The notes below the pieces were generated by a model, which saw only the letters and a program-made list of their open reading frames with translations, was not told the DNA's origin and searched no databases. From the NCBI GenBank assembly GCA_963760875.1, contig CAVXEH010000002.1, positions 336,258-400,257 of the forward strand: a stretch of DNA of 64,000 bases, in the 5' to 3' direction. Below, in pieces: positions 22,203 through 62,415 of the stretch (within the stretch, counting starts at the first letter, position 1; every line of letters starts with the position of its first letter). Both the position numbers and the translations under genes were made by a program. This DNA is from an uncultured Chloroflexia bacterium (GTDB lineage Bacteria; Chloroflexota; Limnocylindria; QHBO01).

Positions 22203-22203
22203 C

Positions 22204-27300: not shown

Positions 27301-27349
27301 GGGAGGTGTGGAGCGTGCGGGGGCAATGGCCCCCGCACACCGACTGGCC

Positions 27350-28966: not shown

Positions 28967-28994
28967 GTGCCGACTCCTATCGTTCCTTCGCCCC

Positions 28995-30194: not shown

Positions 30195-31413
30195 CTCCCG
30201 CCGGGCCACGCACCACGCGTCCCTTCTGCACGATCAGGATTGGCGCGTCGAGGCCGTCCAGGTTCACGCTTGCGTCTCCACGGACCGCGATGACGTCGGC
30301 TTCTCGGCCAGCCGCCAGCGATCCAATCGCAGACTCTGCTCCCAGGATCTCGGCGCCAACTCGGCTCGCGGCCTCTATGGCCGCCACATTCCCCAAGCCG
30401 AGGGCAGCGAGCAACTTGATCTCGCCTGCCAGGTTCTCATGAGGATTGAAAGGGCTGCCGCCATCCGTCCCAGCGGCTAGGCGAACTCCCTCGGACAGTG
30501 CGAATCGGACCGCCTGTTGCGATAGCTCCTGTGATCGCCGCACATATTCCATCCACCCCACAGAAGTCTTGGTGCGCTCCTCCTCACGCAGCACCGCTTC
30601 ATGCACGGAAAGGGTTGGGACAATCGCGACGTCGCGTTCTGCCGCCATTGCTGCCAATGGCTGATCGAGCGCATACCCGTGCTCGATCACGTCGACACCC
30701 GCCTCGATCACTGCGCGGATCGTGGCCGGAGCGATGGCATGGGCCGTGACGCGCCGCCCCAGCTGGTGCGCTGCGTCGATCACAGCCCTCAGTTCAGATT
30801 GGGACAACGCGGGTCGCGCGACGTCGAGGGCGCCGTCGCTCGTTCCTCCGTCCGCCATCACCTTGACGAAATCCGCTCCCGCCTTCAGTTGCAGGCGAGT
30901 TGCATGCCGGAAACCATCAGCTCCGTTGGCTTCGATGCCGATGGAGTAAGCATGTCCTCCGGTCGCACATATCAGTGCTCCGGCCGCAAAGACTCGGGCG
31001 CCTGGGAGAACCCCATCCGCAATCGCTCGCCTCAACGCGAAGATGCCGGGGTCGGCCGCACCTACATCACGCACAGCAGTGACCCCGGCGAGGAGGCATG
31101 TCTGCGCACGCCCGGCAGCGGCCAGGATGCGATCGGCCTCGGAGCCGTCATTGACCCGCTTGGGACGCTCGACGTCCAGATGGCTCACGGTGAGGTGGAC
31201 GTGGCTGTTGATCAATCCAGGGAGGATCGTCGCGTCCCCGAGATCCACCGAGGTGACAAATGCACCGTCATAGCCTTCGATCCGGGGCCCTGCGTATTCC
31301 AGTGCTTCGCCATTCACTACGACTGCCGCGTCGTGAACAACCCCGCCCAGACCAGTGATCAAGTGAGCCGCCAGATAGGCGGTGGGTCCAGGGGAGCCTT
31401 CAGCCCGCGTCAC
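30172..31413 (-). CDS. Amidohydrolase-family metal-dependent hydrolase (second paralog)
   Basis: ILPGLINSHVHLTV (HxH), a KAGADF block and an HAxxxxxI block. The track start (31578) would overlap the upstream gene by 168 bp; a start near VTRAEGS (GTG ~31413) is more plausible. Confidence 0.65.
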   Translation of the reverse strand: MTRAEGSPGPTAYLAAHLITGLGGVVHDAAVVVNGEALEYAGPRIEGYDGAFVTSVDLGDATILPGLINSHVHLTVSHLDVERPKRVNDGSEADRILAAAGRAQTCLLAGVTAVRDVGAADPGIFALRRAIADGVLPGARVFAAGALICATGGHAYSIGIEANGADGFRHATRLQLKAGADFVKVMADGGTSDGALDVARPALSQSELRAVIDAAHQLGRRVTAHAIAPATIRAVIEAGVDVIEHGYALDQPLAAMAAERDVAIVPTLSVHEAVLREEERTKTSVGWMEYVRRSQELSQQAVRFALSEGVRLAAGTDGGSPFNPHENLAGEIKLLAALGLGNVAAIEAASRVGAEILGAESAIGSLAAGREADVIAVRGDASVNLDGLDAPILIVQKGRVVRGPAGDVNAAAA

Positions 31414-32474
31414 GGCAGTTCGTCCCCTCGCAGTATCCGCGTGCCTGGTGCTGTCGTGTCCACCATTAGATAGGCCCAATCGCCAGGCCGGACGGGGTAC
31501 GGGCGGGCTACCATATCGACCAGGCCGGGGACTGGCGCGCGAAGCTCCTCCAGTAGTGAGAAGGAATAGGGACTCCAAACAGTCCCCAGGAGCTCACCCG
31601 GTTCGACTCTGACCTCCATGAGTGCGTCTGGCGCAAGAACGGGCTCCAAAATGCCACCGACGGTTGGGTTGACTCGGCGTACGGCATCAAAGACCACTAT
31701 CTCGTCGGCCACAGTAGGGGCACCGGGCAGCATCTCGAGTTCGCGCATTACCCCTCGGACGCCGGACAGATTCCGCTGCAGCCATGTCTCTTCCAAGGCA
31801 GGGTCGAAACCGGCGCCTCCGACTTCGGAGATGATGCCGGGGATGCCCAGCACCTGCCCGGCGTAGCCGATCATGCTCTTAGGGCCAGGGAACTTGGTTG
31901 CGAGGTCCCCCCGTCGCACATGAGCCAGCCCAAATGCCCGGGCGAGTTCGTACGAACGGCGCGAGACGGCGGGGTCCACAAAATCGCGCCCACATGTCAC
32001 GGAACCCATCGCCGCACCCCAGAGCCCGCTGTGGAAGTCAATGACCGCGTCCGCCACCGAGAGGACACTCGCGCTGATCACCATCGCCATCTGGTCGGCG
32101 AGCCACGCCTGCACACCACCGAACGAGCGATTGAGGTCCGGACTGTCGGACTCGTCCACGATATTGCGCGTGCCGCTGGCAAACGCAATCGGGTTGGCCA
32201 CGGGGATCAACAGAAGGGTTCCCGCCAGATCCTTGGGGGTAACCTGGTTCGCCAGAGCGAGGAGCACGTCTGTTGCGAGCCACTCGCCTCCGTGTAGTCC
32301 CGTCACAACTGCGAGAGTCGGGCCAGACTGGGCTCCGGCTACCACGTGAACATGGAGGGACACAATCGAACCGTCGAGGTCCGTTACCATTGGGATCGCC
32401 ACATGGCCTGCCTGTCCGGGTTCGAAGCGGCGCCCACCCAGTTCAATGCCTTGTGTCGGCGCATTTGTGCTCAT
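31410..32474 (-). CDS. Succinylglutamate desuccinylase/aspartoacylase (AstE/AspA, M14-like zinc deacylase) family protein
   Basis: LHGGEW zinc-ligand block and overall AstE_AspA pattern. Start at MSTNAPTQG gives an ATGA overlap with the upstream paralog. Confidence 0.65.
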   Translation of the reverse strand: MSTNAPTQGIELGGRRFEPGQAGHVAIPMVTDLDGSIVSLHVHVVAGAQSGPTLAVVTGLHGGEWLATDVLLALANQVTPKDLAGTLLLIPVANPIAFASGTRNIVDESDSPDLNRSFGGVQAWLADQMAMVISASVLSVADAVIDFHSGLWGAAMGSVTCGRDFVDPAVSRRSYELARAFGLAHVRRGDLATKFPGPKSMIGYAGQVLGIPGIISEVGGAGFDPALEETWLQRNLSGVRGVMRELEMLPGAPTVADEIVVFDAVRRVNPTVGGILEPVLAPDALMEVRVEPGELLGTVWSPYSFSLLEELRAPVPGLVDMVARPYPVRPGDWAYLMVDTTAPGTRILRGDELP

Positions 32475-33568
32475 CCCGGGGAACCCTCCTGCCGCTGACG
32501 GTTCTCGACCCATCGGGTCTTGCCGGTCGTTGTGGCAGCCAGGCCATACGCCCAGCCTCCCGGAACGACCGGATAGTCGCGCGAGGCCATGAAGAGCAGG
32601 CCGTCGACAGGTGCGCGCAACTCCTCCAGTGTTTCGCCGGTGTATGGACTCACCACCTCACCCAAGAGCGTGCCCGCCTTGATCTCGTCCCCGAGCTGCC
32701 GACCGCCAAAGCGCGATCGAAGCAAGCCACCGTTGGTCGGGTTCACACGGAAGCTGCGTTCGTAGACGAGTTGTCTCGACGGGCGAGGGTCTGGTGCGCC
32801 TTGCAGCATCCCAAGGTGGCCCATCACGGCCTGGATACCGTTCGAGGTCGCGTCAATCCAACTCCGCTCCAGTGACTGGGCGAAGCCGGCTCCACCAACC
32901 TCCACCGCGATGGCCGGAATGCCCAATTGTCCGCCCGCATAGCCGATCGAGGACTTGGGACCCGGGAACCCGCCGACGACCTGCGAGCGGCGCACAGTCG
33001 GCGTGCCGAACGCGAGAGCCATCCTCTCGGCGGCTTCGGCGACATCACCGCGGTAGTCGTCGCCCGTAATGATGTCGAGATCCGCATGACCCCACCCGCC
33101 GACGTGGAAGTCGATTAATGCGTCCGCGGGTTCTAGCAGCTCACGGACGATCGTCCCCACCAACTGATCGGTGGTCCAAGTCAAGGGGCCGGGGAATACT
33201 CGATTCGGGTCTGGGCTGTCGGAGTCGTCGGGCATGTCACGGCTGCGCCTTGCAAGGGCGAAGGGATTACCAACAGGCACCATCAAGACCGTGCCGGACA
33301 CGGCGCTCAGGTCGAGGGCACCAGCGAAGCTCCGTAACCCCAAGATCGAGAACCACTCCACCCCATGCAGGGTGGATAGGAGCGAGAGCGTGGGACCATC
33401 GCGCCCTCCGCTCAGAACATGAACGGTCAGCGCCACAGGCGCGCCATTCAGGCCCGTCGTGACTGGAATGCTGACTATCGAGTGGGTAGCCCGTCGGGCG
33501 ATTGCCTCGACGATCGCGGCGCTCGGCAACTGCGTTCCCCGCTGTACTGCCGTATTGGTACAGTGCAC
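32471..33568 (-). CDS. AstE/AspA-family zinc deacylase (second paralog)
   Basis: LHGVEW block; similar length and architecture to the 31410-32474 gene. Confidence 0.65.
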   Translation of the reverse strand: MHCTNTAVQRGTQLPSAAIVEAIARRATHSIVSIPVTTGLNGAPVALTVHVLSGGRDGPTLSLLSTLHGVEWFSILGLRSFAGALDLSAVSGTVLMVPVGNPFALARRSRDMPDDSDSPDPNRVFPGPLTWTTDQLVGTIVRELLEPADALIDFHVGGWGHADLDIITGDDYRGDVAEAAERMALAFGTPTVRRSQVVGGFPGPKSSIGYAGGQLGIPAIAVEVGGAGFAQSLERSWIDATSNGIQAVMGHLGMLQGAPDPRPSRQLVYERSFRVNPTNGGLLRSRFGGRQLGDEIKAGTLLGEVVSPYTGETLEELRAPVDGLLFMASRDYPVVPGGWAYGLAATTTGKTRWVENRQRQEGSPG

Positions 33569-33622
33569 TATTGGCGTCCGGAACCGCTTTTGTCAAGTCT
33601 CTCGCCGCGATCGCGGACCACC

Positions 33623-34390
33623 TCAGGGACTCTGGCGAATCTCCGAAATAACCTCGTCCGCGGTGGAGACACGGCAGAATGGCGACGAGGACTTGATGCC
33701 AACGTCATGGATTTCTGGGGTCACGTCAGCGCACCCGTCCTCAACCAAGACACAGTCGAATCCTCGATCCGCGGCGTCGCGCAGGGTTGACTCGACGCAG
33801 TAATTCGTCGCTACTCCACAGAACACCAGTTCCCTGGACCCCAGATTCCATAGCAAACGCTCGAGCGGCGATGCAGTGAATCCACTGGCCCCGGTCTTGG
33901 CCAGGACCGGCTCTCCAGGAAGCGGAGCGATCGACTCCAGGACCTGCATCTCGCGACTCCCCAAGACAGCGTACGGAGGGTTGAGCCCCCGTTCCGTCCA
34001 ATGGTCAGCCGCTCTTCGGAATCGCGGCGGCATGTCTGACAGGTCTCCGACGACCGATCCGACCGTCAGAAAGATCACGGGCGCGCCGACGTCCCTGAAT
34101 GTGCCTTGAAGCCGCTGGACGCTAGGCACGACAACACGCTCGATCCGCTCGTTGTAGGCATCCACTAGGTCGGCGTAGCCGATAGCACGGAAGACATTTG
34201 CGAAGCCATATCCATCGGCGGCGCTGCCGTACTGAAGGTCCACAAGAATCAGGGCCGAAGTCGCAGGCCGCAGACGGAAATCGTTCATCCGGCGTCGATA
34301 GGCAAACAGTGCTTCGGCGGCATCGGTTCGAGTTGGGTCGAGGCCGATTTCGCCCTCTCTATCGTGGGCACTTCGAACATCCGTCGTCAT
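33623..34390 (-). CDS. Isochorismatase-family cysteine hydrolase
   Basis: ALILVDLQYG (catalytic Asp block) and CGVATNYCVEST (catalytic Cys). Start likely MTTDVRS (ATGA overlap with the dipeptidase). Confidence 0.7.
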   Translation of the reverse strand: MTTDVRSAHDREGEIGLDPTRTDAAEALFAYRRRMNDFRLRPATSALILVDLQYGSAADGYGFANVFRAIGYADLVDAYNERIERVVVPSVQRLQGTFRDVGAPVIFLTVGSVVGDLSDMPPRFRRAADHWTERGLNPPYAVLGSREMQVLESIAPLPGEPVLAKTGASGFTASPLERLLWNLGSRELVFCGVATNYCVESTLRDAADRGFDCVLVEDGCADVTPEIHDVGIKSSSPFCRVSTADEVISEIRQSP

Positions 34391-35454
34391 CGCCAAACCT
34401 CCTCGAACACTCGTCTGAAGTTGCCACCGAGGATCCCTTGAAGGTCCTCGTCGCCGAAACCGATGTCGGCCAGCGCTTCGGCAATGCGAGGCATGTCCTC
34501 GCAACTCCCGGCGCCTTGAGCGAACCGCGTGTCGTATCCGTACCAGTCGCCCATAAGGCCGGCAACGGTGGGGTATCTGCCCGCGCGTCCGTAGAGCTCA
34601 TCCCACGCGTGACGCGGATGGCCCTCGGAGTGGTCCGAGCCAATGCCCACGTGTCTCGGCCCGACCAGCTCCACAACGTGCTCAACGTGCCGAAGGAAGT
34701 GGGTGATGGCAGGCCACTCTCCGTCACCACCTACCATTGGCGACCAGAAGGTCAAACCAATCACGCCGCCCCGCCGCTTCAGCGCATGGAGAACTTCGTC
34801 GTTCACGTTTCGCGGGCTGTCGAAGACCGCGCGTGCATTGGCGTGCGAGACGATGACCGGCCGCGCGGACACCTCGATCGCCTCGAGCATCGTCGTCTCG
34901 TGGGCGTGCGAAAGATCCACAACAACGCCCATCGCGTTGAGCTGCTTCACCAGGTGCTGGCCCCGAACCGTCAGCCCTCGTGCTCTCGACACCGTGCAGC
35001 CGTCGCCGAAGACATTTCTCTCGTTGTAGGTCAGCTGGACGATTCGAACACCGTGCTCATACAAGGTCTCCGCAGCGTCCGCGGACTCCGCAAGCGGCAG
35101 CGCGTTCTGTGGGCCGAAGATCAGCCCAACGCGGTCGGTTGCCTTCGCGACATCGAGATCCCTACCGCGCTCGATTAGCAGCAGTCTGTCAGGTCGTGCG
35201 GCGATGAACTCCCGCGCCGCCTGAATTTCATGCAGGGCTTGGCGCAGCCCGGCGTGGGGGGAGCACACCGTCCAGTTGAAAGCCGTAACCCCCGAACGGA
35301 GCATGCGATCGACGTGCTCTTCATCCATGGTAGGTGCGACCGATCCGTCGATGACGACGGATGCCTCATATAGGGAAGAGCCGCCGGAAGAACCGCCGTT
35401 GGAACGTTTAACCGTGGGCTCGCTGTTTGCCAATGCTGGCCTCCACCGCGACAC
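34387..35454 (-). CDS. Membrane dipeptidase (peptidase M19 family)
   Basis: HVDRMLRSGVTAFNWTV, VVDLSHAHETT and IVSHANARAV are M19 hallmarks. Confidence 0.75.
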   Translation of the reverse strand: MSRWRPALANSEPTVKRSNGGSSGGSSLYEASVVIDGSVAPTMDEEHVDRMLRSGVTAFNWTVCSPHAGLRQALHEIQAAREFIAARPDRLLLIERGRDLDVAKATDRVGLIFGPQNALPLAESADAAETLYEHGVRIVQLTYNERNVFGDGCTVSRARGLTVRGQHLVKQLNAMGVVVDLSHAHETTMLEAIEVSARPVIVSHANARAVFDSPRNVNDEVLHALKRRGGVIGLTFWSPMVGGDGEWPAITHFLRHVEHVVELVGPRHVGIGSDHSEGHPRHAWDELYGRAGRYPTVAGLMGDWYGYDTRFAQGAGSCEDMPRIAEALADIGFGDEDLQGILGGNFRRVFEEVWR

Positions 35455-35457
35455 GAG

Positions 35458-37050
35458 TCATCCGCTTGCTGCAATCACTGTCGGGCGACCATTCACAATC
35501 ACGGCCTCGATTCCGGACGGATGCATAGTCGGCGATCGCCAGTCTGCCGACGCACCAATCTCATCCGCCTGAAATACCACCAGATCCGCATGCGACCCTG
35601 GCCGGATCTCCCCTCGCCCACCCAGCCGCAAGGCCCGGGCCGGTCCGCCAGTGAGCCGGTGAGCGGCCTCCCCGATGGTCAACAGACGTCGATCGCGAAC
35701 GAAATGACCCAGCAGCCGACCGGTTGAACGGAAATGGCGGGGATGTGGCTGCATCGTGTTCCAAGGCTCACCCACGCGCGAGGGCGATGTCGCAATCGCG
35801 TCCAGCCCCAGGTAGCTGTGTGGCCATCGAGCGACGGTCTCTACGTCGGCCTCGGAAAGCCTCCTGTGAAGAAGCATCAACGCTTGCCCCTCCTCAGCTA
35901 CCAGCCGAAGCAGGAGGTCAACTGGCGATACACCCGCCACCCCCGCGGCTGACACAAGGTCGAGCCCGCGCAGGGCGACATTCGGTCCGCTCGAGTCGCA
36001 ATCCTCAATCGTCACGTCGGCCCAATCCGAGAAGACCAGGTACTCCGCGTAGAAGCCCTGCCTCGGAGCGCGTCGGCGGCGTTCGATTACACTGGCCAGC
36101 GCTGCGCGTGCATCTCGATCGAAGAGCGTCCTCTGCAGCGACGACCAGTCTGGGCTGCGCCAGTCCCAGACCTCCGGGGGAAAGATCGCACGCATTCCAT
36201 CCCACGCTCCGACGGTCGGCCACAGCAAGAGATCGGTTGAGGTCTCCGCCCCTTCTGCCCGTGCGTCGTCGAGAAGCGCCAACGCCTCGCCCACGCTCCC
36301 CCACGCGGGCCTTCCGAAGGCATGCAGCAGCGAGACATGCAGTCGGCATCCCCCTCGTCTCGCAAGCTCAAGGGCTTCCATCACAGCTGTCAGAAGATGC
36401 TGCCCGTAGTCGCGTAGGTGAACCACGAGGAGCGCGTCGTGCCGACCCACAAGTTGCGACACCTCAAGCAACTCAGCTTGGTCCGCATGAAGGTCAGGCT
36501 CGAAGTGGAGGCCGAGCGAAACGCCTGCGGCGCCCGCCTCCAAGCAGGCGTCAACGTGGGTGCAGATGGCGGCGCGCTCCGTGTCCGTTGCCGGACGGTT
36601 GGGCGTGTCGCCCATGCACGCACGGCGGACTGTGCCCAGGCCGACAAGCAGCACAGGATTCACGGCGAGTGAGGCGGGCAGCCGACTGCGATAGTCCGCC
36701 ATGGATTCCCACTCGGCAGAAATGCCGTCGGGGTCGAACTTGCGCAAAGTGGAGCCGCCCGGAAGCGGGAAGGCGGATGACCCGCAGTTTCCGAGAACCT
36801 GAGTCGTTATACCTTGGGCAACGAGACTCTCGGCGGAGGGATTGAGCACGAGAGAGATATCGGAATGACCGTGCATGTCAATGAAACCAGGCGCGACGGC
36901 GCACGCGGTGGCGTCAACAACGACGGCGCCATCGAGGGCGTCGGCGGTCACGACCTCGACCCTATCGCCGATGACGCCTACATTCGCGGCGAAGCCATTG
37001 CTCGCAGTGCCGTCGAGCACAACGCCGCCGGCGACGACAAGGTCAAACAT
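35458..37050 (-). CDS. N-acyl-D-amino-acid deacylase (D-aminoacylase, amidohydrolase-3)
   Basis: PGFIDMHGHSD...GITTQVLGNCGSSAFP signature of D-aminoacylases. 530 aa. Confidence 0.8.
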   Translation of the reverse strand: MFDLVVAGGVVLDGTASNGFAANVGVIGDRVEVVTADALDGAVVVDATACAVAPGFIDMHGHSDISLVLNPSAESLVAQGITTQVLGNCGSSAFPLPGGSTLRKFDPDGISAEWESMADYRSRLPASLAVNPVLLVGLGTVRRACMGDTPNRPATDTERAAICTHVDACLEAGAAGVSLGLHFEPDLHADQAELLEVSQLVGRHDALLVVHLRDYGQHLLTAVMEALELARRGGCRLHVSLLHAFGRPAWGSVGEALALLDDARAEGAETSTDLLLWPTVGAWDGMRAIFPPEVWDWRSPDWSSLQRTLFDRDARAALASVIERRRRAPRQGFYAEYLVFSDWADVTIEDCDSSGPNVALRGLDLVSAAGVAGVSPVDLLLRLVAEEGQALMLLHRRLSEADVETVARWPHSYLGLDAIATSPSRVGEPWNTMQPHPRHFRSTGRLLGHFVRDRRLLTIGEAAHRLTGGPARALRLGGRGEIRPGSHADLVVFQADEIGASADWRSPTMHPSGIEAVIVNGRPTVIAASG

Positions 37051-38023
37051 CCCCAATGCGGCCACACTTCACGCACCATTCGCCGGTCTGGATCGTGGCG
37101 GTGTGGCGGATGTCGGTGATGACCGAACGAAACGGGGCTCGGATCTCCTCGACTACCTCTCCTAGGAGATTGCGCACGAACCCCACGGGCTCTCCACGTT
37201 CCACGGTGTCACCCAGGTCGACCACCTGCTCAAAGAAGCCGCCGTGCTGGGGCCGCGGCCATTCGGACTCTCGGCAGACGTACTGGCTTCCGTCGTCCGG
37301 CGGTGCACCACCAGCGAGCACGCCTAGCCCGCGCAGCACACGTCTGGCACCCACCACACCCGCCTCGACGAAATCGTCGCGAAGGGTTCCACCTCCGCCC
37401 AACTCAATGCCAAGCGCCGACTTGCCAGCTGCGCGGGCCTGGACAGTGATGGCTCCCGTCCGTGCCAGACGCCGCTGTTCCTCTGTCACAGAAACGGCAG
37501 TTATCGGGATGCCTTGTCCAAACCAGCGTGCCAGCTGCAGGTCGCGATCGATCTTCTCCCGGTCGTCTTGATCGGTGCCGACTATCAGGTAGCGAGCGAT
37601 GAAGTCGCGCCCGCCCTCGTGAAAGTCCATCCATACGTCTGACGCCAGAACGCCGTCCTGATAGATGAGATGAGCGAGCCGCTCCATTTGAAATCCGCGC
37701 TCGTTCCCGGGGAAGACACGATTGAGGTTGAGGCGCTCGTATTCGAGTTGGCTTGCCCGTGTGCCGGTGAGAAGAGCAAACGGATTGGCAACGGGCAGCC
37801 CGATGAGTGCGCCGGTGACGTCGAGCGGGTCGAGTTCGTCGAACAGACGGTTCACGACAGCGAAACCGTTGTACTCATCCCCATGGAGCATGGCGCTCAT
37901 GCCGACGAGCGGCCCAGATTGGGCGCCGGCAAGGAGCCGAACGGGCATACTCACTTGCGCGCCGGACGCGAGCTCACCGATCACGCACCAGCCGCTGGTC
38001 TTAGCACTCGGCGGACAGAACAT
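37043..38023 (-). CDS. AstE/AspA-family zinc deacylase (third paralog)
   Basis: MLHGDEYNGF zinc-ligand block. The track ORF extends to 38185 but the probable start is MFCPPSAK. Confidence 0.6.
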   Translation of the reverse strand: MFCPPSAKTSGWCVIGELASGAQVSMPVRLLAGAQSGPLVGMSAMLHGDEYNGFAVVNRLFDELDPLDVTGALIGLPVANPFALLTGTRASQLEYERLNLNRVFPGNERGFQMERLAHLIYQDGVLASDVWMDFHEGGRDFIARYLIVGTDQDDREKIDRDLQLARWFGQGIPITAVSVTEEQRRLARTGAITVQARAAGKSALGIELGGGGTLRDDFVEAGVVGARRVLRGLGVLAGGAPPDDGSQYVCRESEWPRPQHGGFFEQVVDLGDTVERGEPVGFVRNLLGEVVEEIRAPFRSVITDIRHTATIQTGEWCVKCGRIGDV

Positions 38024-38136
38024 TCCGAAAGCGGACAAGCCAGCGCTCTTCACTCGGACTCCCAGCTGTGTGGCTGTAGTAGTACAGTTATCATCGGTGC
38101 GGAGGGACACAGGTGTCAATGCCTTCTGAGGACCAC

Positions 38137-38898
38137 ATGTTGTCGATCGACTTGAACGGCGACGTCGGCGAGAGCTACGGCACATGGAGTCACGGGCAGG
38201 ACGACGAACTGATCCCGCTGCTCACATCAGCCAACCTTGCATGTGGCTTCCACGCTGGCGACCCCCTGACGATGCGGCGTACAGCAGCAATCGCGCTTGA
38301 ACACGGCGTGGCAATCGGCGCGCACCCGGCCTACCCCGACCTCGTCGGCTTTGGCCGCCGGGACCTCGAGATGCAGGATCGCGAGCTCGAAGCGGCCGTC
38401 CTCTACCAGATCGGTGCGGCGGCGGCCATCGTGCGCTCCGTTGGCGGCCATCTCACACATGTCAAGCCGCACGGGGCGCTCTACAACCGTTCCGCCCGGG
38501 ATCCCCGGGTGGCCAGGGCGGTCGCTCGCGCAGTTGCTGCGGCTGACCAGCACCTCGTGCTAGTTGGCTTGGCTGGATCGCAATCCATCTCGGAGGCCGG
38601 AGCGCTCGGGCTTCGCACCATCGCAGAAGCGTTCGCAGATCGCCGCTACGAGGCCGACGGCCGCTTGCGATCGCGGAAATTCCCAGGCGCTGTGATGTCG
38701 GACCCAGAAGAGGTATGTCAGCAGGCCCTTCAAATCGTCGCTGGCAGCATCCATTCAGTAGATGGGGCCACCGTTGCCATTTCAGCCGCGACCATCTGCC
38801 TCCATAGCGACACTCCGGGAGCCGCAGACCTGGCACGCCAAGTCCGCAGCGCCCTCCTCGACGCAGGAGTTGCTCTGGCGGCCCCTTACTCAGCGTGA
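38137..38898 (+). CDS. pxpA: 5-oxoprolinase subunit A (LamB/YcsF family)
   Basis: SIDLNGDVGESYG...LLTSANLACGFHAGDP...IGAHPAYPDLVGFGRR are LamB/YcsF blocks. Confidence 0.8.
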   Translation: MLSIDLNGDVGESYGTWSHGQDDELIPLLTSANLACGFHAGDPLTMRRTAAIALEHGVAIGAHPAYPDLVGFGRRDLEMQDRELEAAVLYQIGAAAAIVRSVGGHLTHVKPHGALYNRSARDPRVARAVARAVAAADQHLVLVGLAGSQSISEAGALGLRTIAEAFADRRYEADGRLRSRKFPGAVMSDPEEVCQQALQIVAGSIHSVDGATVAISAATICLHSDTPGAADLARQVRSALLDAGVALAAPYSA

Positions 38899-39557
38899 GC
38901 CGCTACCCGGTCATCGCTCCTTTTGGCGACGGCGCCGTGCTGATCGTCCTAGGTGACAAGATCGATGTTGCGCTGAATGCCAAAGCACACGCGATGGCGG
39001 CGGCCGTGGCAGATGAGCGCGTGAAGCATCCGGAATGGGGCCGGCCTGTTGTCGGCTTCGCGAGCATCCTGCTCCGGTACGACCCGCTTACCGTACCGTG
39101 GCACGCAGCCCGACGGTTCGCGAGGTTGCTCCTGACCGTCGAACCATCCGTCTCGCCCAAAGGCAGCGGCCCGATTGTTATCCCCGTCCGTTACGGGGGC
39201 GCGGACGGACCCGACCTTGATCAGGTGGCAGAGCGACTTGGCCTCAGCTCGGCGGACGTCGTGGAGATGCACTGTGGGCAGGAGTACCTGGTGTTCTGCA
39301 TCGGCTTCTCGCCCGGCTTTCCCTACCTCGGAATGCTACCGCCGGCACTGAGCCTTCCCCGCCGAGACCGACCCCGAACGCGCGTACCGGCTGGCTCGGT
39401 CGCCATCGCTCGGCGGCAAACGGCCATATATCCACTGCCGACGGCGGGCGGTTGGCATCTCATCGGGCGCACGAACCTGCCCCTGTGGGCTGCTGATCGC
39501 GACCCCCCCTCACTGTTGCGTCCAGGTCAGAGCGTGCGATTCGTAGCAGATCGATGA
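38895..39557 (+). CDS. pxpB: 5-oxoprolinase subunit B (allophanate hydrolase subunit 1/KipI-like)
   Basis: EYLVFCIGFSPGFPYLG and AIARRQTAIYPLPTAGGWHLIG are conserved PxpB blocks. ATGA coupling with pxpA. Confidence 0.8.
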   Translation: MSRYPVIAPFGDGAVLIVLGDKIDVALNAKAHAMAAAVADERVKHPEWGRPVVGFASILLRYDPLTVPWHAARRFARLLLTVEPSVSPKGSGPIVIPVRYGGADGPDLDQVAERLGLSSADVVEMHCGQEYLVFCIGFSPGFPYLGMLPPALSLPRRDRPRTRVPAGSVAIARRQTAIYPLPTAGGWHLIGRTNLPLWAADRDPPSLLRPGQSVRFVADR

Positions 39558-40564
39558 CCGACCTGCTGGAAGTCATCTCGAGCGGACCCCTTGCTACGAT
39601 TCAGGACGCCGGCCGCCCAGATTTCACCGATATCGGCGTGCCACACGGCGGCGCCTGCGATCCACTCTGCCATGTAATCGCCAACGCCCTCGTCGCCTGT
39701 CCGCCGGAAGCACCGGTCATCGAGATCGCAGGTGGAGGCTTTCGGGCGCGCGCGCTGGAAGCCTGCATAGTCGCCGTCGCGGGTGTCAACGTTCACCTCG
39801 CCGTGACCGGACGGGCAGCGATGCGAGCGAACCGGGGGGTCTATCTCCATCGTGGCGACGTCCTTGAAGTCGTGGTGAATCCACATAGCGGCCTTCGGAG
39901 CTACATGGCAATTCAAGGCGGTTTCCAGGTGGCACAGGTCCTTGGATCTGCCTCGGCCTACCCGTTAGCGGGCTTCCCGGGGCTGGCGGGGAGGAGCCTA
40001 GAGTCCGGAGACCGACTTTCGGCCAAACCGGGGCGGTCGGCGTACCTCCCTCCGCTGTCTTGGCCGGACTCCGGCCCTCAGCCCCAACTACCTGACAGTC
40101 CTCTCCACGTACTGACCGCACCAACCAAGTCGTACTTCTCCTCGGCGGCTTTACGTTCATTTGCCGCTGACGAGTTCAAAGTCACCGAGCATGCCGACCG
40201 GACGGGTATCCGGCTGACCGGCGGAAACTTGCGGCCGTCCTTCGAGCTAGGGGAGCCCGTTTCGTACGGAATGGTGCGCGGTGCGGTCCAAGTCTCGAAC
40301 GACGGCACTCTCATGCTACTGATGCCTGATCACCCAACCATAGGTGGCTATCCGGTAATCGGGGTTCTGACCTCTGTCGATATTCCCATGGCTGCTCAAC
40401 TTAGGCCAGGCGACAGCGTGAGATTCTCACCGATGCCATTGGCCGAGTCGCAGCGCCTGCTCACAGAACGGGACTCGGAGCTTCGGAACGCGATAGCCGA
40501 ATTGGGCCGAGAGGACTACCAATGGTCGGAGCTTCTGGAGGATGCGGGAATGCCTGGAATGTAG
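39554..40564 (+). CDS. pxpC: 5-oxoprolinase subunit C (allophanate hydrolase subunit 2/KipA-like)
   Basis: ISSGPLATIQDAGR...GVPHGGACD N-terminus and C-terminal MPDHPTIGGYPVIGV are typical of PxpC. Coupled to pxpB. Confidence 0.8.
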   Translation: MTDLLEVISSGPLATIQDAGRPDFTDIGVPHGGACDPLCHVIANALVACPPEAPVIEIAGGGFRARALEACIVAVAGVNVHLAVTGRAAMRANRGVYLHRGDVLEVVVNPHSGLRSYMAIQGGFQVAQVLGSASAYPLAGFPGLAGRSLESGDRLSAKPGRSAYLPPLSWPDSGPQPQLPDSPLHVLTAPTKSYFSSAALRSFAADEFKVTEHADRTGIRLTGGNLRPSFELGEPVSYGMVRGAVQVSNDGTLMLLMPDHPTIGGYPVIGVLTSVDIPMAAQLRPGDSVRFSPMPLAESQRLLTERDSELRNAIAELGREDYQWSELLEDAGMPGM

Positions 40565-43458: not shown

Positions 43459-44481
43459 TGCCAAGCCCGTGGGCCTCCTGATGACCGCCGACCAATCTCT
43501 GCCGGAGACCCACGCGAGGTTAGGGCGCCTCACCCGCACGCATGGGGAGGGCACCTCCGTGCTTCTGGCCGGGGTATCGGCGAGTTCGCTCGTCATGGCC
43601 GTGGTTCTGGGCTTTCGAACCTGTACAGCTCGCGCGTGTTCTCTGGGAGCTGTTGGAGAATCGCCGCGCGTGTCGTCTGGCTATATACCGCAGAGCCAAC
43701 CGCGAGACCTTCCAAGACGACGAGCGCCGCGTTGAATGGGCGGTCCCAACCATGGTTCGTTTGGTGGATGCGCTGGGACCCGGCATCAAGGCCTGTAGTG
43801 CCGGCAGGGCAGGCCTAGCGTTGCCTCCTCCGGCGCTCGGGAGTCGGACGGCGCATCACGCGTAGCGCCGGATGCCGAAGAGCGCATAAGTACCCGACAT
43901 CTCCTGCGCTGCCTGCGCCGATTCACCCTCAGTCGCCTCGACCGAAACCGCCCATCCGAGTCCGCTGGAGGGTTATGCGCTGTTCCCCAGTGAGGACCCT
44001 GATCGTGAGTCGAGTGACCCTGCACGGTGGTGTTAGCCCAACATTCGATCCAGGTTGCGAGGGATCCGACGCGGAATTGCCGAACCCCTTGTACGGGTAG
44101 GTACCGCATGCTCGCTTCGTTCCGGTGGGAACGAGGCACGCGCTCCACGTCGAAGTGGAATGCAGGTGCCCTTAGGACCGACCGCAACTGCGCTGGCGAC
44201 ACCGCCTGAGTCGAAGTCAGGCGGTGCCCTTCGGCAGGCGCTCAATACGGCTCCTGTTGATCGAGCCGTGCGATGCCCGTTGGCGCACCGCGTTGGGGTG
44301 CCCACGCCATTCGCGTCACTTTCATCACGCTCGCCGCCGAAGGTGGAGCATCCCCTCGACTTCGTGCACCGTGGCATGCATCGGACCCGCGCACGGCCGA
44401 GCGCTGTATCCGTTGCCAGACGATCTAGACAACATCCCCACCGACTGCATCCACCTCAAGTCCGCCGCTCAGACGTCGCGA

Positions 44482-45555
44482 TCAGAACGGCATGTCGTCT
44501 ACGTCAGCGAACGACGGTGCTTCCCCGAAGTCGACCTCTTCCTCGTCGGCGGGTCCGGTTTCGTCGTCCATTGCATCCAGTGTGGCAGCGAGATGGCCGA
44601 TCATCACGTCCGCACGCGCGAGCACTTGGTCAAAGGTGAGGATCTCGACCCCGCTGAGGTGCGCGTTCAGGCGGCGGAGGGCGCGTCGACGATCGTCATC
44701 CCAGTCATTCGACCTGCCGATCACGATCCGGATGCGCGGGTAGACCACCGGCAGGTGGTAACGGTCCCTGAGAACGAACTTCTGGTCGTCGAGCTTCTCG
44801 AGGTAGCTCAGGGACTGCCCAAGAGCGGCGCCGAAGTCGCCAGCTGGTCTCCACGTGCGATGCGACGGGTCCCAGGTCAAGACGCTCGCTGACACACGCT
44901 TGAGCTCAAACAGGTCAAGGAACCCGTCGGCCGTCCTCATGATGAAGTCGCCCTGAGCTTCGATGTCGAACTGTCGGCGATCTTCGCGGGCGACGTACTC
45001 GGACCCGAAGATCCACGGGTGGGCCTCGAACCAGGACTGCAGCTCGCGCTCGAGCGGGTCCTCATCAACCAGCGCCGCCAGCTCGGCTTTGCCCCGCCGC
45101 ATGCGGGCGAGATTGCTGGCTGCTTGGAGGACTTGCGTGTCCTCCTCCTCCATCAGACGGATGATTGGCAGGAACGCCTTGGGGTTGCGGCGGAGACCCG
45201 AAAGCAGGCTGAGAATCCCTTGTGCGTCCGGCTTGTTGTCGTCGATCAGAACAGTGAGGTAGCGGGTAGAGCGGCCCTGTGGCAACGCCTCGCGCCATGC
45301 CACCATGTGCGAGAACAAGCTGTCGAATGCAGAGCCCTCGAGCGGGATATGCTCGGTCGGCTCGGATGGCCACGCGTCGGCCAATCCCGATCGCTGCCAC
45401 CGATCGATCTTCAGGCGGATCGAGTGCGGGCTACCGTCGGGTCGGCGGATCAGCACTGCTCGAACGCGGACACGAACTCGGGGACCTTCGTGGAGCGTGA
45501 CATCCTCGGAGAACCCGAGGTTCCCGTGCGTCTCTATGCGGCCCCCCTTGTCCAT
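44482..45555 (-). CDS. PD-(D/E)xK-like nuclease-domain protein (possible DUF4263/Shedu-like); candidate defense protein
   Basis: GGAGG SD 9 nt upstream of ATG. The C-terminal region has the restriction-endonuclease-like signature IMRTADGFLDLFELKR (D...D-x-ELK) followed by RIRIVIGRS. The N-terminal ~200 aa are unique. Confidence 0.45.
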   Translation of the reverse strand: MDKGGRIETHGNLGFSEDVTLHEGPRVRVRVRAVLIRRPDGSPHSIRLKIDRWQRSGLADAWPSEPTEHIPLEGSAFDSLFSHMVAWREALPQGRSTRYLTVLIDDNKPDAQGILSLLSGLRRNPKAFLPIIRLMEEEDTQVLQAASNLARMRRGKAELAALVDEDPLERELQSWFEAHPWIFGSEYVAREDRRQFDIEAQGDFIMRTADGFLDLFELKRVSASVLTWDPSHRTWRPAGDFGAALGQSLSYLEKLDDQKFVLRDRYHLPVVYPRIRIVIGRSNDWDDDRRRALRRLNAHLSGVEILTFDQVLARADVMIGHLAATLDAMDDETGPADEEEVDFGEAPSFADVDDMPF

Positions 45556-45688
45556 AGGGTCCTTCCCTCCCAGACGCTCAGCCTACAGCTCGCGGATGCG
45601 GTTGACACCTGTATCTGACGAGGCGCTCGGCTCCGCCGGCGCTCGAGCTCTCAAGACGCACTCGGTCGCGGATGTCCATGATCCGAGT

Positions 45689-46693
45689 CTACGACCCTCC
45701 CTTTGGGTCATCGTCGTCGTCTTGGTCGGCCCAGTACAGCATCTCCATCGACATGGCCGTCCAGGTCACGCCTGTGTCGCCCACGGTCGCGAACACTTGA
45801 TCGAACCGCGGCGCGTCGAAGAAGAAGAACTCGGCACCGCGAACGTCCTTCTGCGTGTATCGGACTCGCGCCATTCGCCACAAGCCACGAATGAGCTTGA
45901 TGCCCATGAAAGTCATGGGGACCTGCTGGTCCGGCCGCACCCACCGATACGTCGTGAACCACCTCGGATCCTCGGTCCGACTGTCGCGCTTCTGCTCGAT
46001 GTGGTAGATCGCAGGCCCGTGGTGGCGGGTCAGATTACTGTCGCCGAACGAGAAGCCGTACTCGGTTGGGGTCAGGGCCATCCCGTGCTTGGCGCTGTTG
46101 TAGAGCCCCGAGTCCAAGAATTGACGGGCGAAGTACCGGAGAAAGTGCTCAATGTTGTCCACGCTGGCCCACCACATGTCGCGGTCCGGCACGGGCTGCA
46201 GGTACGTCGGGTCCGCAACGAGCTGGAATACCTTCGAGACGGGCTCGCGGAACGCATAGTCCTCGTACTTGGTGTCGAGGAAGCGCTCGGTCACCATCCG
46301 CCGGAACTTCGCAGGACCGCGGACGCGGGCCAACTCGAGGGCGGGACACGGCGGCAAGCTCTCGTGCGCGAGGTACAGACGCATCAGCGTCTCGCCAACG
46401 TGGTGCGCCAAGACTTCGCTCTCGGCCAGGACAAAGTGCTCTGCCGACTTCGCCACTGCCGGCTCATCTGGCTCGATCGGCTCCGGCTTCCCCGTGGCCT
46501 CACCGAACTTCACCCCGCCGAATTCACCACCTTTGCGGATAACCGCGGCCCGAGCGTCTCGCGCTCCTGCCGTGATGAGCAGGTTGTCGAACTGCTCCTG
46601 GAAATAATCGGCCGGCTCAGCCGCGTAGTAGGCGCGGTTGATGCCTGGGAAGTTCTCGTCCGCGAGCTTGTCGTCAGGGCTACGGCGCGGCAT
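45689..46693 (-). CDS. Hypothetical protein (334 aa), upstream partner of the nuclease-like gene
   Basis: Long ORF with protein-like composition and an acidic tail DQDDDDDPKGGS. No recognisable motif. Confidence 0.45.
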   Translation of the reverse strand: MPRRSPDDKLADENFPGINRAYYAAEPADYFQEQFDNLLITAGARDARAAVIRKGGEFGGVKFGEATGKPEPIEPDEPAVAKSAEHFVLAESEVLAHHVGETLMRLYLAHESLPPCPALELARVRGPAKFRRMVTERFLDTKYEDYAFREPVSKVFQLVADPTYLQPVPDRDMWWASVDNIEHFLRYFARQFLDSGLYNSAKHGMALTPTEYGFSFGDSNLTRHHGPAIYHIEQKRDSRTEDPRWFTTYRWVRPDQQVPMTFMGIKLIRGLWRMARVRYTQKDVRGAEFFFFDAPRFDQVFATVGDTGVTWTAMSMEMLYWADQDDDDDPKGGS

Positions 46694-46936
46694 TCAACGA
46701 TGCTATCGCCGGTCAGCGGAGGCGGCGCATCGTTTCGGGCGTCTCGCCGAGCGCGAGGCTGGCACTTACGCAGCAGGCTCAGTGATCGTGAGCGCGGACT
46801 ACAGATGTTGTGGGGTTCGCTAGGCACGAAAGGAGTCGAGCCTTCGGTCCCCTGATCCAGAGTCAGGTGCCTTACCGCTTGGCCACGCCCCAACGTTTGA
46901 ACGGGACCCGGGCTTCGCCCGGCCTTCCTTTTGGGA

Positions 46937-47022
46937 TGAGTCAGATGCCCATCCATTTCTGAGTCAGATGCCGATCCGAAAAATCGGATGAGTCTGTTGC
47001 CCTATCGAGCTCCATGAGTCTA
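46937..47022. repeat. GAGTC-containing direct repeats plus a perfect hairpin, immediately upstream of the tRNA fragment
   Basis: GAGTCAGATGCC x2 (46937, 46961); hairpin ATCCGAaaaaTCGGAT; GATGAGTCTG and CATGAGTCTAG. Locally AT-richer. Confidence 0.6.
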
Positions 47023-47189
47023 GCGTGCTCGCTGGCTGCGAGTCCTCCCGAGCCTCCCGACCTGCATAGTCCGGATCCGGCGTTGTCCCCGTAAGCTCCA
47101 CATGGGTCTCAGTCGATGATCTCGCGCTCGATCATGACTCTCGGTCGCCGCGGATCGCCTGCTTTGGAACACGCGTAGGAGGAGAGTGC

Positions 47190-47240
47190 CGGCGGCTGTT
47201 AACCGCTTGGTCGCAGGTTCGAGTCCTGCCGCCGGAGCCA
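47190..47240 (+). pseudogene. tRNA-Asn(GUU) 3' fragment (positions ~26-76: anticodon arm, variable loop, T-arm, acceptor 3' strand, CCA) lacking a 5' acceptor strand and D-arm
   Basis: C-GGCGG-CTGTTAA-CCGCT-TGGTC-GCAGG-TTCGAGT-CCTGC-CGCCGGA-G-CCA. The anticodon loop CUGUUAA is canonical for Asn and the T-loop TTCGAGT is canonical. Upstream sequence (...ACACGCGTAGGAGGAGAGTGC) cannot form a D-arm or acceptor pairing. Confidence 0.55.
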
Positions 47241-47275: not shown

Positions 47276-47890
47276 GTGAACGACAACGCACGGATGACGG
47301 GGCCTGATCAGGAAGCCCTGTTCGAGACGGCCAGCGCCCAGGCCGGGTACTTCACGGCGGCCCAGGCGCTGGATCACGGCTTCAGTTCGGCGCTGCTGAC
47401 CCATCACACGAAGACCGGGCGCTTCCTGCGCGTTGCCCGCGGACTGTACCGGCTGCGCGACTACCCGTCCGCGCCGGGCGAGGAGATCGTCGCCGCGTGG
47501 CTTCGCCAGGCACCCCGCGCGGTCGTGTCGCACGAGTCAGCGCTGGAGCTGCTCGGCCTGTCCGACACCATCGCCGATCAGGTCCACCTCACGGTCCCTC
47601 GCGAGCGTCGTCGACTGGTGTCGCAACCCGGGGTCACGATCCACACCACGACGCACCCATTCACCGAGACTGACCTCATCAGCCGCCACGGCGTTCGGCT
47701 CACGGCGCCGGCCCGCACCATCGTCGATGTCGCGGGAGCGGGTCTGGCTCCCGACCAGGTCGCGGCAGCCGTCAGCCAGGCGCTGCGGCGAGGGCTCACC
47801 ACGCCGGCCCTGCTCCGCGAGGCGGCTCGTTCGCGCGGTCATCGGGTCCAGCGGCTGGTCGAAGCCGCGCTCGCTGGGGCTGGTATATGA
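47276..47890 (+). CDS. AbiEi-family antitoxin/transcriptional regulator (type IV TA / abortive infection)
   Basis: N-terminal AbiEi_4-like wHTH (FETASAQAGYFTAAQALDHGFSSALLTHHTKTGRFLRVARGLYRL) and a C-terminal domain. Overlaps the downstream AbiEii gene by 4 bp. Confidence 0.65.
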   Translation: MNDNARMTGPDQEALFETASAQAGYFTAAQALDHGFSSALLTHHTKTGRFLRVARGLYRLRDYPSAPGEEIVAAWLRQAPRAVVSHESALELLGLSDTIADQVHLTVPRERRRLVSQPGVTIHTTTHPFTETDLISRHGVRLTAPARTIVDVAGAGLAPDQVAAAVSQALRRGLTTPALLREAARSRGHRVQRLVEAALAGAGI

Positions 47891-48774
47891 GGTACGCCTC
47901 TGCGGGCGCCTTCCGCCGGGCGCTCGAGATGCGTCTTACTACGCACGCGCGCGGCACCGGCAGCTCGGTGGTCCGCCTGCGCAAGGAGGTCGCCTTCGAT
48001 CGGCTGCTCGCTCGTCTGTTCGCCGTGGCGCCGGCGCGCTGGGTCCTGAAGGGCGCCCTGGCGCTCGACTACCGCTTCGGCGACCGCGCCCGAACGACGA
48101 AGGACATCGATCTCGCCAACACTGGGGACGAGGCTTCTGCGACGAACGAGCTGCTCGCGGCGCAGGCGGTCGATCTTGGCGACTTCTTCGGCTTCGCGAT
48201 CGAGCGCACGAGCGCCCTCGAACGTCTGGCGGAGGGTACCGCCGTGCGCTATCACGTCCGCGCCGAGCTGGCCGGTCGGGTGTTCGATGAATTCCTGCTC
48301 GATGTGGGCTTCGACCCGCCAACCGGGATCGAGCTCGACCGGCTACACGGGCCGGACCTCCTGGTCTTCGCCGAGATCACGCCCGTCGAGGTCGCAGCCA
48401 TCCCGATCGAGTTCCACGTGGCCGAGAAGCTCCATGCCTTCAGTCGCGTCTATAGCGTGGGCTCGATCGTGAGCACCCGCGTGAAGGACCTCGTCGACCT
48501 CGTGCTCATCGCGGCCGAAGCCACTCTGGAGGCAGCGAGGCTCCGGTCGGCCATCAGGACCACCTTCGGTCGCAGGGCGAACCGTGAGCTGCCCGCAGGC
48601 CTGCCCCGTCCACCAGGCGACTGGCGCGTCCCGTATGGCCGGATGGCGCGTGTGGTCGGCCTCGATCCTGACCTTGAGGCCGGCTTCGGCTTGGCCGCGC
48701 GGATGCTCGATCCGATTCTCGGGCGCACCGTTCACCGTGGCGCGTGGGATCGTGTCGCTCAGACCTGGACCTGA
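47887..48774 (+). CDS. AbiEii/AbiGii-family nucleotidyltransferase toxin
   Basis: Motif LKGALALDYRFGDRARTTKDIDL (KGGxAL...R.S.DIDL) typical of DUF1814/AbiEii nucleotidyltransferases. 295 aa. Confidence 0.7.
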   Translation: MRYASAGAFRRALEMRLTTHARGTGSSVVRLRKEVAFDRLLARLFAVAPARWVLKGALALDYRFGDRARTTKDIDLANTGDEASATNELLAAQAVDLGDFFGFAIERTSALERLAEGTAVRYHVRAELAGRVFDEFLLDVGFDPPTGIELDRLHGPDLLVFAEITPVEVAAIPIEFHVAEKLHAFSRVYSVGSIVSTRVKDLVDLVLIAAEATLEAARLRSAIRTTFGRRANRELPAGLPRPPGDWRVPYGRMARVVGLDPDLEAGFGLAARMLDPILGRTVHRGAWDRVAQTWT

Positions 48775-50432: not shown

Positions 50433-50693
50433 TTACCTCGACATGTGTCTGGAACGACTGGCAGCCGTGCGACTCCGGTCTCGTTTCAGGACCGCACGAC
50501 AGTCTGGGCAATATCGCTGGACCGGCGAGCGGCGTTCGACGACTTGATGGCAACGCGCGCACTGGACGAGCGCGACCTTCAGCCACGCGCGCGATCGAGC
50601 CGTGGGGCGGGAGAGCGAGATGCGACTCTCAGTCGTTCCACGCGAATTCAGTACACGGCCGGCTCCCGCCCGGCCAGATGACCCTGCGGCCAA
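50433..50693 (-). CDS. Stand-alone 86-aa zinc-ribbon-like ORF homologous to the C-terminal module of the serine recombinase at 60585-62345 (fragment or domesticated small protein)
   Basis: AGAGRVLNSRGTTESRISLSRPTARSRAWLKVALVQCARCHQVVERRSPVQRYCPDCRAVLKR aligns with the recombinase C-terminus. About 80% nucleotide identity over ~250 bp. Confidence 0.4.
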   Translation of the reverse strand: MAAGSSGRAGAGRVLNSRGTTESRISLSRPTARSRAWLKVALVQCARCHQVVERRSPVQRYCPDCRAVLKRDRSRTAASRSRHMSR

Positions 50694-55515: not shown

Positions 55516-55827
55516 CTATAGGTCAGAGCCTGGATCGGCGTTCCGTTGCACCTTCCGTCGCTGCATCATCGCCTCCCGGCTGAGCTTGCGTTTGAGGACG
55601 GCTCGACACGCCGGACAATGGCGTTGTACTGGGGACTTCCGCTCGACGACCTGAAGGCAGCCGGCGCACTCGACGAGTGCGATCTTCAGCCACTCGCGGG
55701 AGCGAGGCTGGTGGGGGAGCGGGATACCGCTCTCGGTCGCGCCCAACCGATTCAGTACACGGCTGGCTCCGGCCCGCCGGAGCCAGCTACCAGGTGGTAG
55801 CATGTTTTCGACCCGTGATCCAAGCAC
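55516..55827 (-). CDS. Stand-alone 103-aa zinc-ribbon-like ORF homologous to the serine recombinase C-terminal module (second copy)
   Basis: SWLRRAGASRVLNRLGATESGIPLPHQPRSREWLKIALVECAGCLQVVERKSPVQRHCPACRAVLKR. Nucleotide similarity to 50.5 kb and 60.7 kb copies includes the conserved palindrome GGCTCCGGCCCGCCGGAGCC. Confidence 0.4.
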   Translation of the reverse strand: MLGSRVENMLPPGSWLRRAGASRVLNRLGATESGIPLPHQPRSREWLKIALVECAGCLQVVERKSPVQRHCPACRAVLKRKLSREAMMQRRKVQRNADPGSDL

Positions 55828-62345: not shown

Positions 62346-62415
62346 GGTCCCTCCATCGTAGGTCCAGCCCGCAAGCAGGCGCTCTCGGCCCTGCCGTAGC
62401 GAGTCCGTGTTCTGG

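Follow-up and report, generated by a model that had tools for sequence, protein, structure and literature searches.

A 64,000-nucleotide stretch of DNA from an uncultured Chloroflexia bacterium (contig CAVXEH010000002.1), termed here the window, carries two adjacent minus-strand genes that an initial annotation had put forward as a candidate two-gene defense module. The gene at 44482–45555 encodes a 357-aa protein, designated SduA on the basis of the matches given below, and the gene at 45689–46693 encodes a 334-aa protein that belongs to a family without a name. The two are separated by a 133-bp spacer (45556–45688, minus strand), and the strand, lengths and gap first reported for the pair proved exact. 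Third-position GC content is 0.79 in sduA and 0.83 in the 334-aa gene, values typical for genuine genes of a high-GC genome, and the start codons of both genes were judged to be right because the N-termini of the proteins line up with those of their homologs. A 516-aa plus-strand open reading frame (ORF) at 45305–46855, which overlaps both genes, was dismissed as a high-GC shadow ORF. The sduA ATG is preceded by a ribosome-binding site of the GGGAGG type, GGGAGGGAAGG, located inside the spacer. A terminator search found none between the two genes, and the spacer is also without a consensus promoter and without an unusual fold (folding z-score −0.56).

Sequence comparison places the 357-aa protein as a full member of the known Shedu (SduA) family. 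Pfam SduA_C (DUF4263, PF14082) matches residues 169–312 with 59 bits against a cut-off of 27 (8.2e-16), and 20 SduA models of PADLOC match the protein. The best of these, PDLC00402, covers residues 10–333 at 1.4e-45, and a second, PDLC00385, covers residues 27–321 at 1.6e-43. A profile built from 32 SduA homologs retrieved solved Shedu structures from the PDB, namely 8ti8 (5.4e-18), 8ti9/8tia (2.2e-15) and 8ps4/8ps5 (3.5e-13). The profile was needed for this result, as the single 357-aa sequence gave no Shedu match in the PDB. The Shedu-type PD-(D/E)xK nuclease proposed in the initial annotation is thus supported by a Pfam score above the cut-off, by near-full-length PADLOC matches and by solved structures. 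Two further parts of that proposal did not hold. The N-terminal domain had been called unique, but the two near-full-length PADLOC matches indicate that it is common to a known Shedu subgroup; and since the protein is a member of a described family, its locus is not an undescribed system.

The predicted structure and the conserved residues of SduA follow the common plan of Shedu proteins, in which an N-terminal regulatory domain is joined through a helical linker to a C-terminal DUF4263 PD-(D/E)xK nuclease with motifs I–IV. In the AlphaFold2 (AF2) model the N-terminal domain (aa 17–93; 45277–45507, minus strand), which is also covered by the PADLOC matches, is formed by strands at residues 19–23, 27–37, 43–54 and 68–71 followed by a long helix at 75–93, and a helical linker connects this domain to the nuclease core. 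The SduA_C domain (aa 169–312; 44620–45051, minus strand) is modeled with a predicted local distance difference test score (pLDDT) mostly of 80–95. Within it, E169 (motif I), D203 or D210 (motif II), E217-x-K219 (motif III, E217-L-K219) and Q247 (motif IV) were assigned, and E169, D203, D210, E217, K219 and Q247 are all invariant across the 32 homologs. These residues correspond to motifs I–IV of the Bacillus cereus Shedu, which are E204, D249, E264/K266 and Q295 (Gu et al. 2023). The sequence DGFLDLFELKR, from which a restriction-endonuclease-like core had originally been recognized, was located at residues 210–220 (nt 44896–44928), inside the SduA_C domain, and holds motif III. Under the published classifications SduA is a type 1 Shedu, the class with an N-terminal regulatory domain, named type 1 by Gu et al. 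2023 and type I by Loeff et al. 2023. The four strands and helix of its N-terminal domain may be equivalent to the sPC4/Whirly domain of class 1A. Characterized Shedu proteins share only 25–35% identity with the protein of the window.

The mechanism described in the literature for Shedu is that of an auto-inhibited tetramer which is activated by infection-related DNA signals and carries out double-strand cleavage. By analogy, SduA would act alone, as a homotetramer whose N-terminal domain keeps it inactive until DNA cues related to infection activate it to cut DNA. The N-terminal domain is accordingly presumed, following Gu et al. 2023, to be both sensor and auto-inhibitory domain.

SduA ends in an acidic tail (aa 330–357; 44485–44568, minus strand) that is predicted to be disordered, with a pLDDT below 40 in the AF2 model, and that closes with the residues DVDDMPF. 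The last 40 residues of close SduA homologs contain 6–14 D/E and 0–3 K/R. An end of the form D-[DE]-[ILMV]-P-F was found in about 20 of 36 SduA homologs, including proteins of 26–31% identity whose tails are otherwise unalignable, and in 29 of the 85 sampled Shedu loci (among L049–L139, with L049–L053 included in the observation; L-numbers, from L001 to L139, are the labels of the compared loci in this analysis). The C-terminal tip of the bacterial single-stranded DNA-binding protein (SSB) carries this same signature, ending in DDDIPF in E. coli, and the DVDDMPF tip of SduA resembles SSB ends of the D-D-D-I-P-F type. It may represent a mimic of the SSB tip through which Shedu is linked to SSB-binding proteins. 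If functional, the tip could connect the recruitment or regulation of Shedu with the network of SSB interactions at replication forks, and the presence of a disordered acidic tail with a D-D-[ILM]-P-F tip in about a third of the sampled Shedu proteins is possibly informative in this regard. The disordered acidic tail ending in DDMPF sets the SduA of the window apart from the Shedu proteins of the two structure preprints, where such a tail and its SSB-like tip are unmentioned, and a literature search returned no report of an SSB-like tip on Shedu.

The 334-aa protein gave no family match in Pfam, NCBIfam or PADLOC (PADLOC-DB 2.0, E up to 1). A weak beta-lactamase score in Pfam (E 0.068; 12.8 bits against a cut-off of 27) was rejected. 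A word-indexed search recovered 27 relatives, none of which carries a name, and an exhaustive profile search extended these to 988 representatives of clusters formed at 50% identity, including 457 with an E-value no higher than 1e-30. Nearly all members have 300–350 aa and align from end to end, and they therefore constitute a family of a single architecture, referred to below as the 334-aa family. Its members are found mainly in Actinomycetota and Chloroflexota, and none was detected in 50,697 phage genomes or in IMG/VR. Pfam searches on 135 members (E up to 0.05) returned only scattered noise and no HEPN domain, PDB sequence searches with two family profiles returned no match, and a third large protein search with a 135-sequence profile recovered solely nameless proteins devoid of Pfam domains. 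The family is real, entirely without annotation and separate from Shedu.

Conserved positions of the 334-aa family were extracted from the 135 sequences. P27, E101, R105, P117, N199, K202, H203 and G204 are invariant, and N19, F22, Y23, Y30, R34, L95, H97, H98, H110, F130, Y198, G226, W245, W272 and Y279 are nearly so. The main conserved motifs of the protein are R105-LYLA-H110 (nt 46364–46381) and Y198-N-S-A-K-H-G204 (nt 46082–46102), and the residue pattern, with R105-x4-H110 and Y198-N-x-x-K-H203, looks enzymatic. The AF2 model (pLDDT 85; predicted template modeling score 0.83) is composed of long helices and a three-stranded sheet at residues 208–251, and a Foldseek search of this model against the PDB and BFVD found nothing significant. 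In the model the first motif, with R105 invariant and H110 at least 90% conserved, lies at the end of helix 77–111. The protein was compared in this respect with HEPN-domain proteins (MNT-HEPN toxins, HI0074, the C-terminal domain of kanamycin nucleotidyltransferase, Csm6 and Las1). The R105-x4-H110 of the family may correspond to the HEPN-type R-x4-6-H, but neither the 334-aa protein nor the 135 members match any HEPN sequence family. Because no link to HEPN was found through Pfam or the PDB, the HEPN-likeness of the family is treated as a lead and not as a classification.

The co-occurrence of the two genes was analyzed in both directions. Loci with a 334-aa-family member were gathered from genomes (43 loci) and from metagenomes or assemblies (seven loci), and two annotated Rhodococcus plasmid loci were taken from three plasmid matches of the family. 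Shedu loci comprised five with close SduA homologs (59–83% identity; L049–L053) and 80 further metagenomic ones. A tblastn search with the SduA of the window found nothing in 48 family loci, and a Shedu profile of 37 sequences detected no Shedu ORF within ~6 kb in 45 distinct family loci and nothing in five further ones (L055–L059), giving none in 50 other loci in total. In the reverse direction, two profiles of the 334-aa family, applied at E up to 1, gave no match in the other Shedu loci, of which 84 are distinct (4 with close SduA homologs and 80 metagenomic). Counting duplicate records and the contig L054, 86 Shedu loci were scanned, and in 48 of them the upstream sequence extends for 1.2 kb or more. 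L054 holds the sole other copy of the pair; this contig comes from another metagenome, is 100% identical and presumably derives from the same strain as the window.

The closest relatives of each gene show the same separation. Alignment by blastn to relatives with 75–83% protein identity produced one block over the 334-aa gene (45689–46711) and one over sduA (44474–45555), both ending at the ORF borders, and the 133-bp spacer has no blastn homology to any related locus. SduA homologs of 59–83% identity are preceded by genes for an uncharacterized 186-aa protein (L049, whose SduA is 83% identical), DUF5131, DUF3800 or a Gabija-like protein. Both upstream and downstream genes vary among L049–L053, so that SduA has no conserved partner there. 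The homologs of the 334-aa protein at 75–81% identity are followed by a gene for a 343-aa protein (after the 80%-identical member of L001), by the type I restriction-modification (R-M) genes hsdM-S-R (after the 75%-identical member of L003), or by nothing co-directional. Two further relatives lie on short contigs, one 83% identical to the 334-aa protein and one 95% identical to SduA. The proposed two-gene module is contradicted by these results, in that homologs of the two genes co-occur nowhere apart from the identical L054. A conserved pairing of Shedu and the 334-aa family is absent, and the two genes are neighbors in a hotspot and do not form a two-gene system.

Two observations on individual neighbors were made in these loci. 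The 343-aa protein of L001 (7093–8124, plus strand) takes the position that sduA has in the window and has no Pfam or PADLOC match; genes for KwaA and KwaB (Kiwa-like) are located 2–4 kb further on, and the protein may be another unrecognized defense gene. Separately, a 387-aa protein with no Pfam match recurs on the plus strand in separate contigs ~1 kb upstream of close SduA homologs of 64–67% identity (L050, 2850–4013; L051, 2881–4044; L052, 1079–2242), while the intervening genes differ.

The locus is very probably made up of two independent genes, a known Shedu and an unrelated mobile-element cargo gene, located in a hotspot flanked by tRNA features. Several points weigh against this interpretation. 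The genes lie on the same strand, 133 bp apart, and as no terminator occurs in the spacer their co-transcription in this strain is possible, yet this is not evidence for a system. About one third of the family loci have a co-directional next gene, several of these encoding nucleases or helicases, and a loose functional link of the 334-aa family to downstream effectors is conceivable. Most contigs are short, and the gene calls in the related loci are heuristic. Finally, a two-component Shedu has been described. KELShedu (PMC12577705) is composed of KELA and KELB, and KELA, a 111-aa double-stranded DNA-binding protein encoded by 333 bp with a 3-bp gap to the nuclease gene, is needed by KELB.

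This precedent raises the question of a lineage-specific two-component Shedu, in which SduA would depend on the 334-aa protein as its sensor or regulator, as KELB does on KELA. Like the window, KELShedu contains a DUF4263 nuclease with a co-directional upstream gene, and the shared strand, the short gap without a predicted terminator and the retention of the pair in the identical second contig are compatible with such a system. The upstream protein of the window, however, has 334 aa against the 111 aa of KELA, the gap is 133 bp rather than 3 bp, and the family is found with Shedu nowhere else; a KELShedu-type pairing was ruled out on the basis of protein size, gap and lack of co-occurrence. 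Relatives of either gene at ~80% identity likewise lack the partner, and SduA already contains an N-terminal regulatory domain, with a separate ribosome-binding site for its gene. A two-component Shedu confined to this lineage is thus considered very improbable, the least probable of the explanations weighed here.

The genomic context of the 334-aa family was characterized in 51 loci by the orientation of the next downstream gene. This gene is convergent in 25 loci; in 18 it runs in the same direction at no more than 300 bp, and in 8 it is far away or missing. The co-directional downstream genes are many and unrelated, the one exception being a gene common to two near-identical loci. Phage_integrase leads the Pfam families of the 111 flanking proteins (7/111), and transposases, AbiEii, SIR2_2, Phd antitoxin, HTH_17 and N6_Mtase were also present. 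Type I R-M genes directly follow the family gene in L003 and again in L059, whose member is 28% identical. Further neighbors include Cas3e, an Avs4-like STAND protein together with an Argonaute-associated restriction endonuclease (Aga_REase), and SIR2. CBASS and an integrase adjoin one family locus, AbiEii genes adjoin two other members, Kiwa and DUF87 genes lie near the member in L001, and L058 is situated at a prophage edge. On Rhodococcus megaplasmids, FtsK/SpoIIIE genes neighbor the family members. A tRNA lies within ~0.5 kb of the family gene in the window and in L011, L017, L020 and L035, and in four Solirubrobacterales loci (L025, L026, L027 and L029) the family gene shares 4 nt with the 3' end of a tyrosine-integrase gene. 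Given these integrase, tRNA, plasmid and defense neighbors, the 334-aa family is regarded as cargo of defense islands and of integrative or conjugative elements, present as a free-standing gene.

In L025 (4640–9389) and L029 (4643–9389), a further gene begins 3–6 bp beyond the family gene; its 809-aa product matched nothing in Pfam or PADLOC. This arrangement suggests that integrase, family gene and 809-aa protein form a conserved three-gene mobile-element module in metagenome-assembled genomes of Solirubrobacterales.

The variety of downstream genes could also be produced if the family were a modular upstream component with interchangeable effectors, such as Shedu, type I R-M, Cas3, a STAND NTPase or large proteins of no recognized family. 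Two of the three closest relatives on readable contigs indeed have a co-directional gene at a distance of 91–133 bp (the 343-aa protein and HsdM-S-R), type I R-M recurs behind the distant 28%-identical member, and Cas3e, the Avs4-like protein and the 809-aa protein are encoded downstream in other loci. Against such modularity stand the 25 of 51 loci with a convergent next gene and the 8 more in which it is distant or absent. The downstream genes have no family in common, and plain clustering in defense islands yields the same pattern; Shedu itself is often embedded in R-M loci. Interchangeable effectors are accordingly regarded as improbable, if marginally less so than a lineage-specific two-component Shedu.

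The main alternative for the family is that it serves the mobile element itself, in the control of integration or excision, in transfer or in maintenance, and has no role in immunity. The overlap with the integrase gene in the four Solirubrobacterales loci, the proximity to tRNAs and to FtsK/SpoIIIE and DUF87 conjugation genes, and the absence of the family from the phage genomes and IMG/VR are all consistent with this. On the other side, the family has no DNA-binding or recombinase-like domain, many of its loci show defense neighbors and not element core genes, and in the window no integrase or transfer gene was found within 13 kb of the 334-aa gene. A service function for the element is therefore rated as unlikely, but less remote than either arrangement that couples the protein to a downstream effector.

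Of the roles considered for the 334-aa protein, the most likely is that of a stand-alone defense or addiction enzyme borne by mobile elements, a tentative assignment that falls well short of an even chance. Such an enzyme would be a helical bundle with the conserved residues E101, R105-x4-H110 and N199-x2-K202-H203, possibly HEPN-like. Slightly more doubtful is the narrower proposal that the protein founds a new family of single-gene immunity or abortive infection that operates independently of Shedu. In this reading it would be a helical-bundle enzyme of roughly 330 aa with invariant E101, R105-x4-H110 and N199-x2-K202-H203-G204, perhaps a divergent RNase of HEPN type, and its gene would reside in defense islands and at the borders of integrative and conjugative elements of actinobacteria. 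With ~1,000 clusters, no annotation, enzyme-like invariant residues and contexts in mobile elements and defense islands, the family merits a functional screen. For the pair as such, a false lead for a new two-gene defense system is removed, the effector being a routine Shedu and its neighbor not a partner.

The surroundings of the two genes in the window bear out the defense and mobile context that had been described for them, as AbiE genes, tRNA features and serine recombinase sequences were all confirmed. An intact tRNA-Gln(CTG) gene (46819–46893, minus strand; ARAGORN, with an Rfam tRNA score of 49.4 bits), absent from the initial annotation, lies 126 bp upstream of the 334-aa gene and is likely an integration hotspot. 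The tRNA-Asn(GTT) remnant that had been reported was verified at 47173–47240 on the plus strand. It lacks its 5' end, ends in CCA, retains the GTT anticodon loop and matches model positions 10–63 of the Rfam tRNA family with 27.8 bits, below the gathering score of 29; its 3' arm occurs once in the window. The remnant is a relic of an attachment site. Direct repeats of tRNA 3' ends that would delimit an island were searched for in the window and none was found. The two tRNA features point towards each other across 280 bp and separate the Shedu side from the AbiE side, with an 18-nt near-perfect tandem repeat, TGAGTCAGATGCC[C/G]ATCC, in the interval at 46937–46977.

AbiEi (47276–47890, plus strand; Pfam AbiEi_4; PADLOC 8.5e-65) and AbiEii (47887–48774, plus strand; Pfam AbiEii; PADLOC 1e-83) are encoded by genes that overlap by 4 nt, and both databases confirm the pair noted earlier at a distance of 0.6 kb. 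This divergently placed operon lies beyond the two tRNA features and has no sequence relation to sduA or the 334-aa gene. It is a separate neighboring type IV toxin-antitoxin/abortive-infection system.

In the preferred explanation of two independent genes, sduA and the 334-aa gene would both have landed in one cargo hotspot by the tRNA-Gln gene and the tRNA-Asn remnant, alongside AbiE. On the left, the hotspot would extend from tRNA-Gln to the metabolic genes; on the right, it would take in what lies beyond the tRNA-Asn remnant. Its setting is like that of known Shedu genes, which likewise occur as single units in defense islands near R-M genes and mobile elements. The metabolic genes to the left belong to a block of lower GC content (21096–40564; ~0.63, versus 0.70–0.77 in the first 20 kb). 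The block encodes a peptide ABC transporter, a luciferase-like monooxygenase, several amidohydrolases, an M19 dipeptidase, AstE/AspA-like enzymes and 5-oxoprolinase-like carboxyltransferase subunits. It was considered as a mobile or defense element and rejected, its contents being those of peptide-transport and amidohydrolase metabolism.

To the right of the gene pair, the serine recombinase array of the initial annotation was upheld in part. Recombinase sequences are present 5–16 kb away, but they amount to one full-length large serine recombinase gene (60585–62453, minus strand; Pfam) and two copies of the last ~73 codons (50451–50672 and 55567–55785, minus strand; 64–68% amino acid identity). 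The full-length recombinase was detected by Pfam and missed by tblastn when recombinases of other loci were used as probes. A 69-nt DNA repeat recurs, its copies spaced by 5104 and 5030 bp. Three cargo segments of ~5 kb are found to the right of the tRNA-Asn remnant, each closing with a serine-recombinase 3' end; they carry, respectively, AbiE and an extracytoplasmic function (ECF) sigma factor; a two-component system and an ABC/FtsX transporter; and ArsR, APH and glyoxalase genes. This arrangement resembles the outcome of tandem cassette accretion at a site within the recombinase gene.

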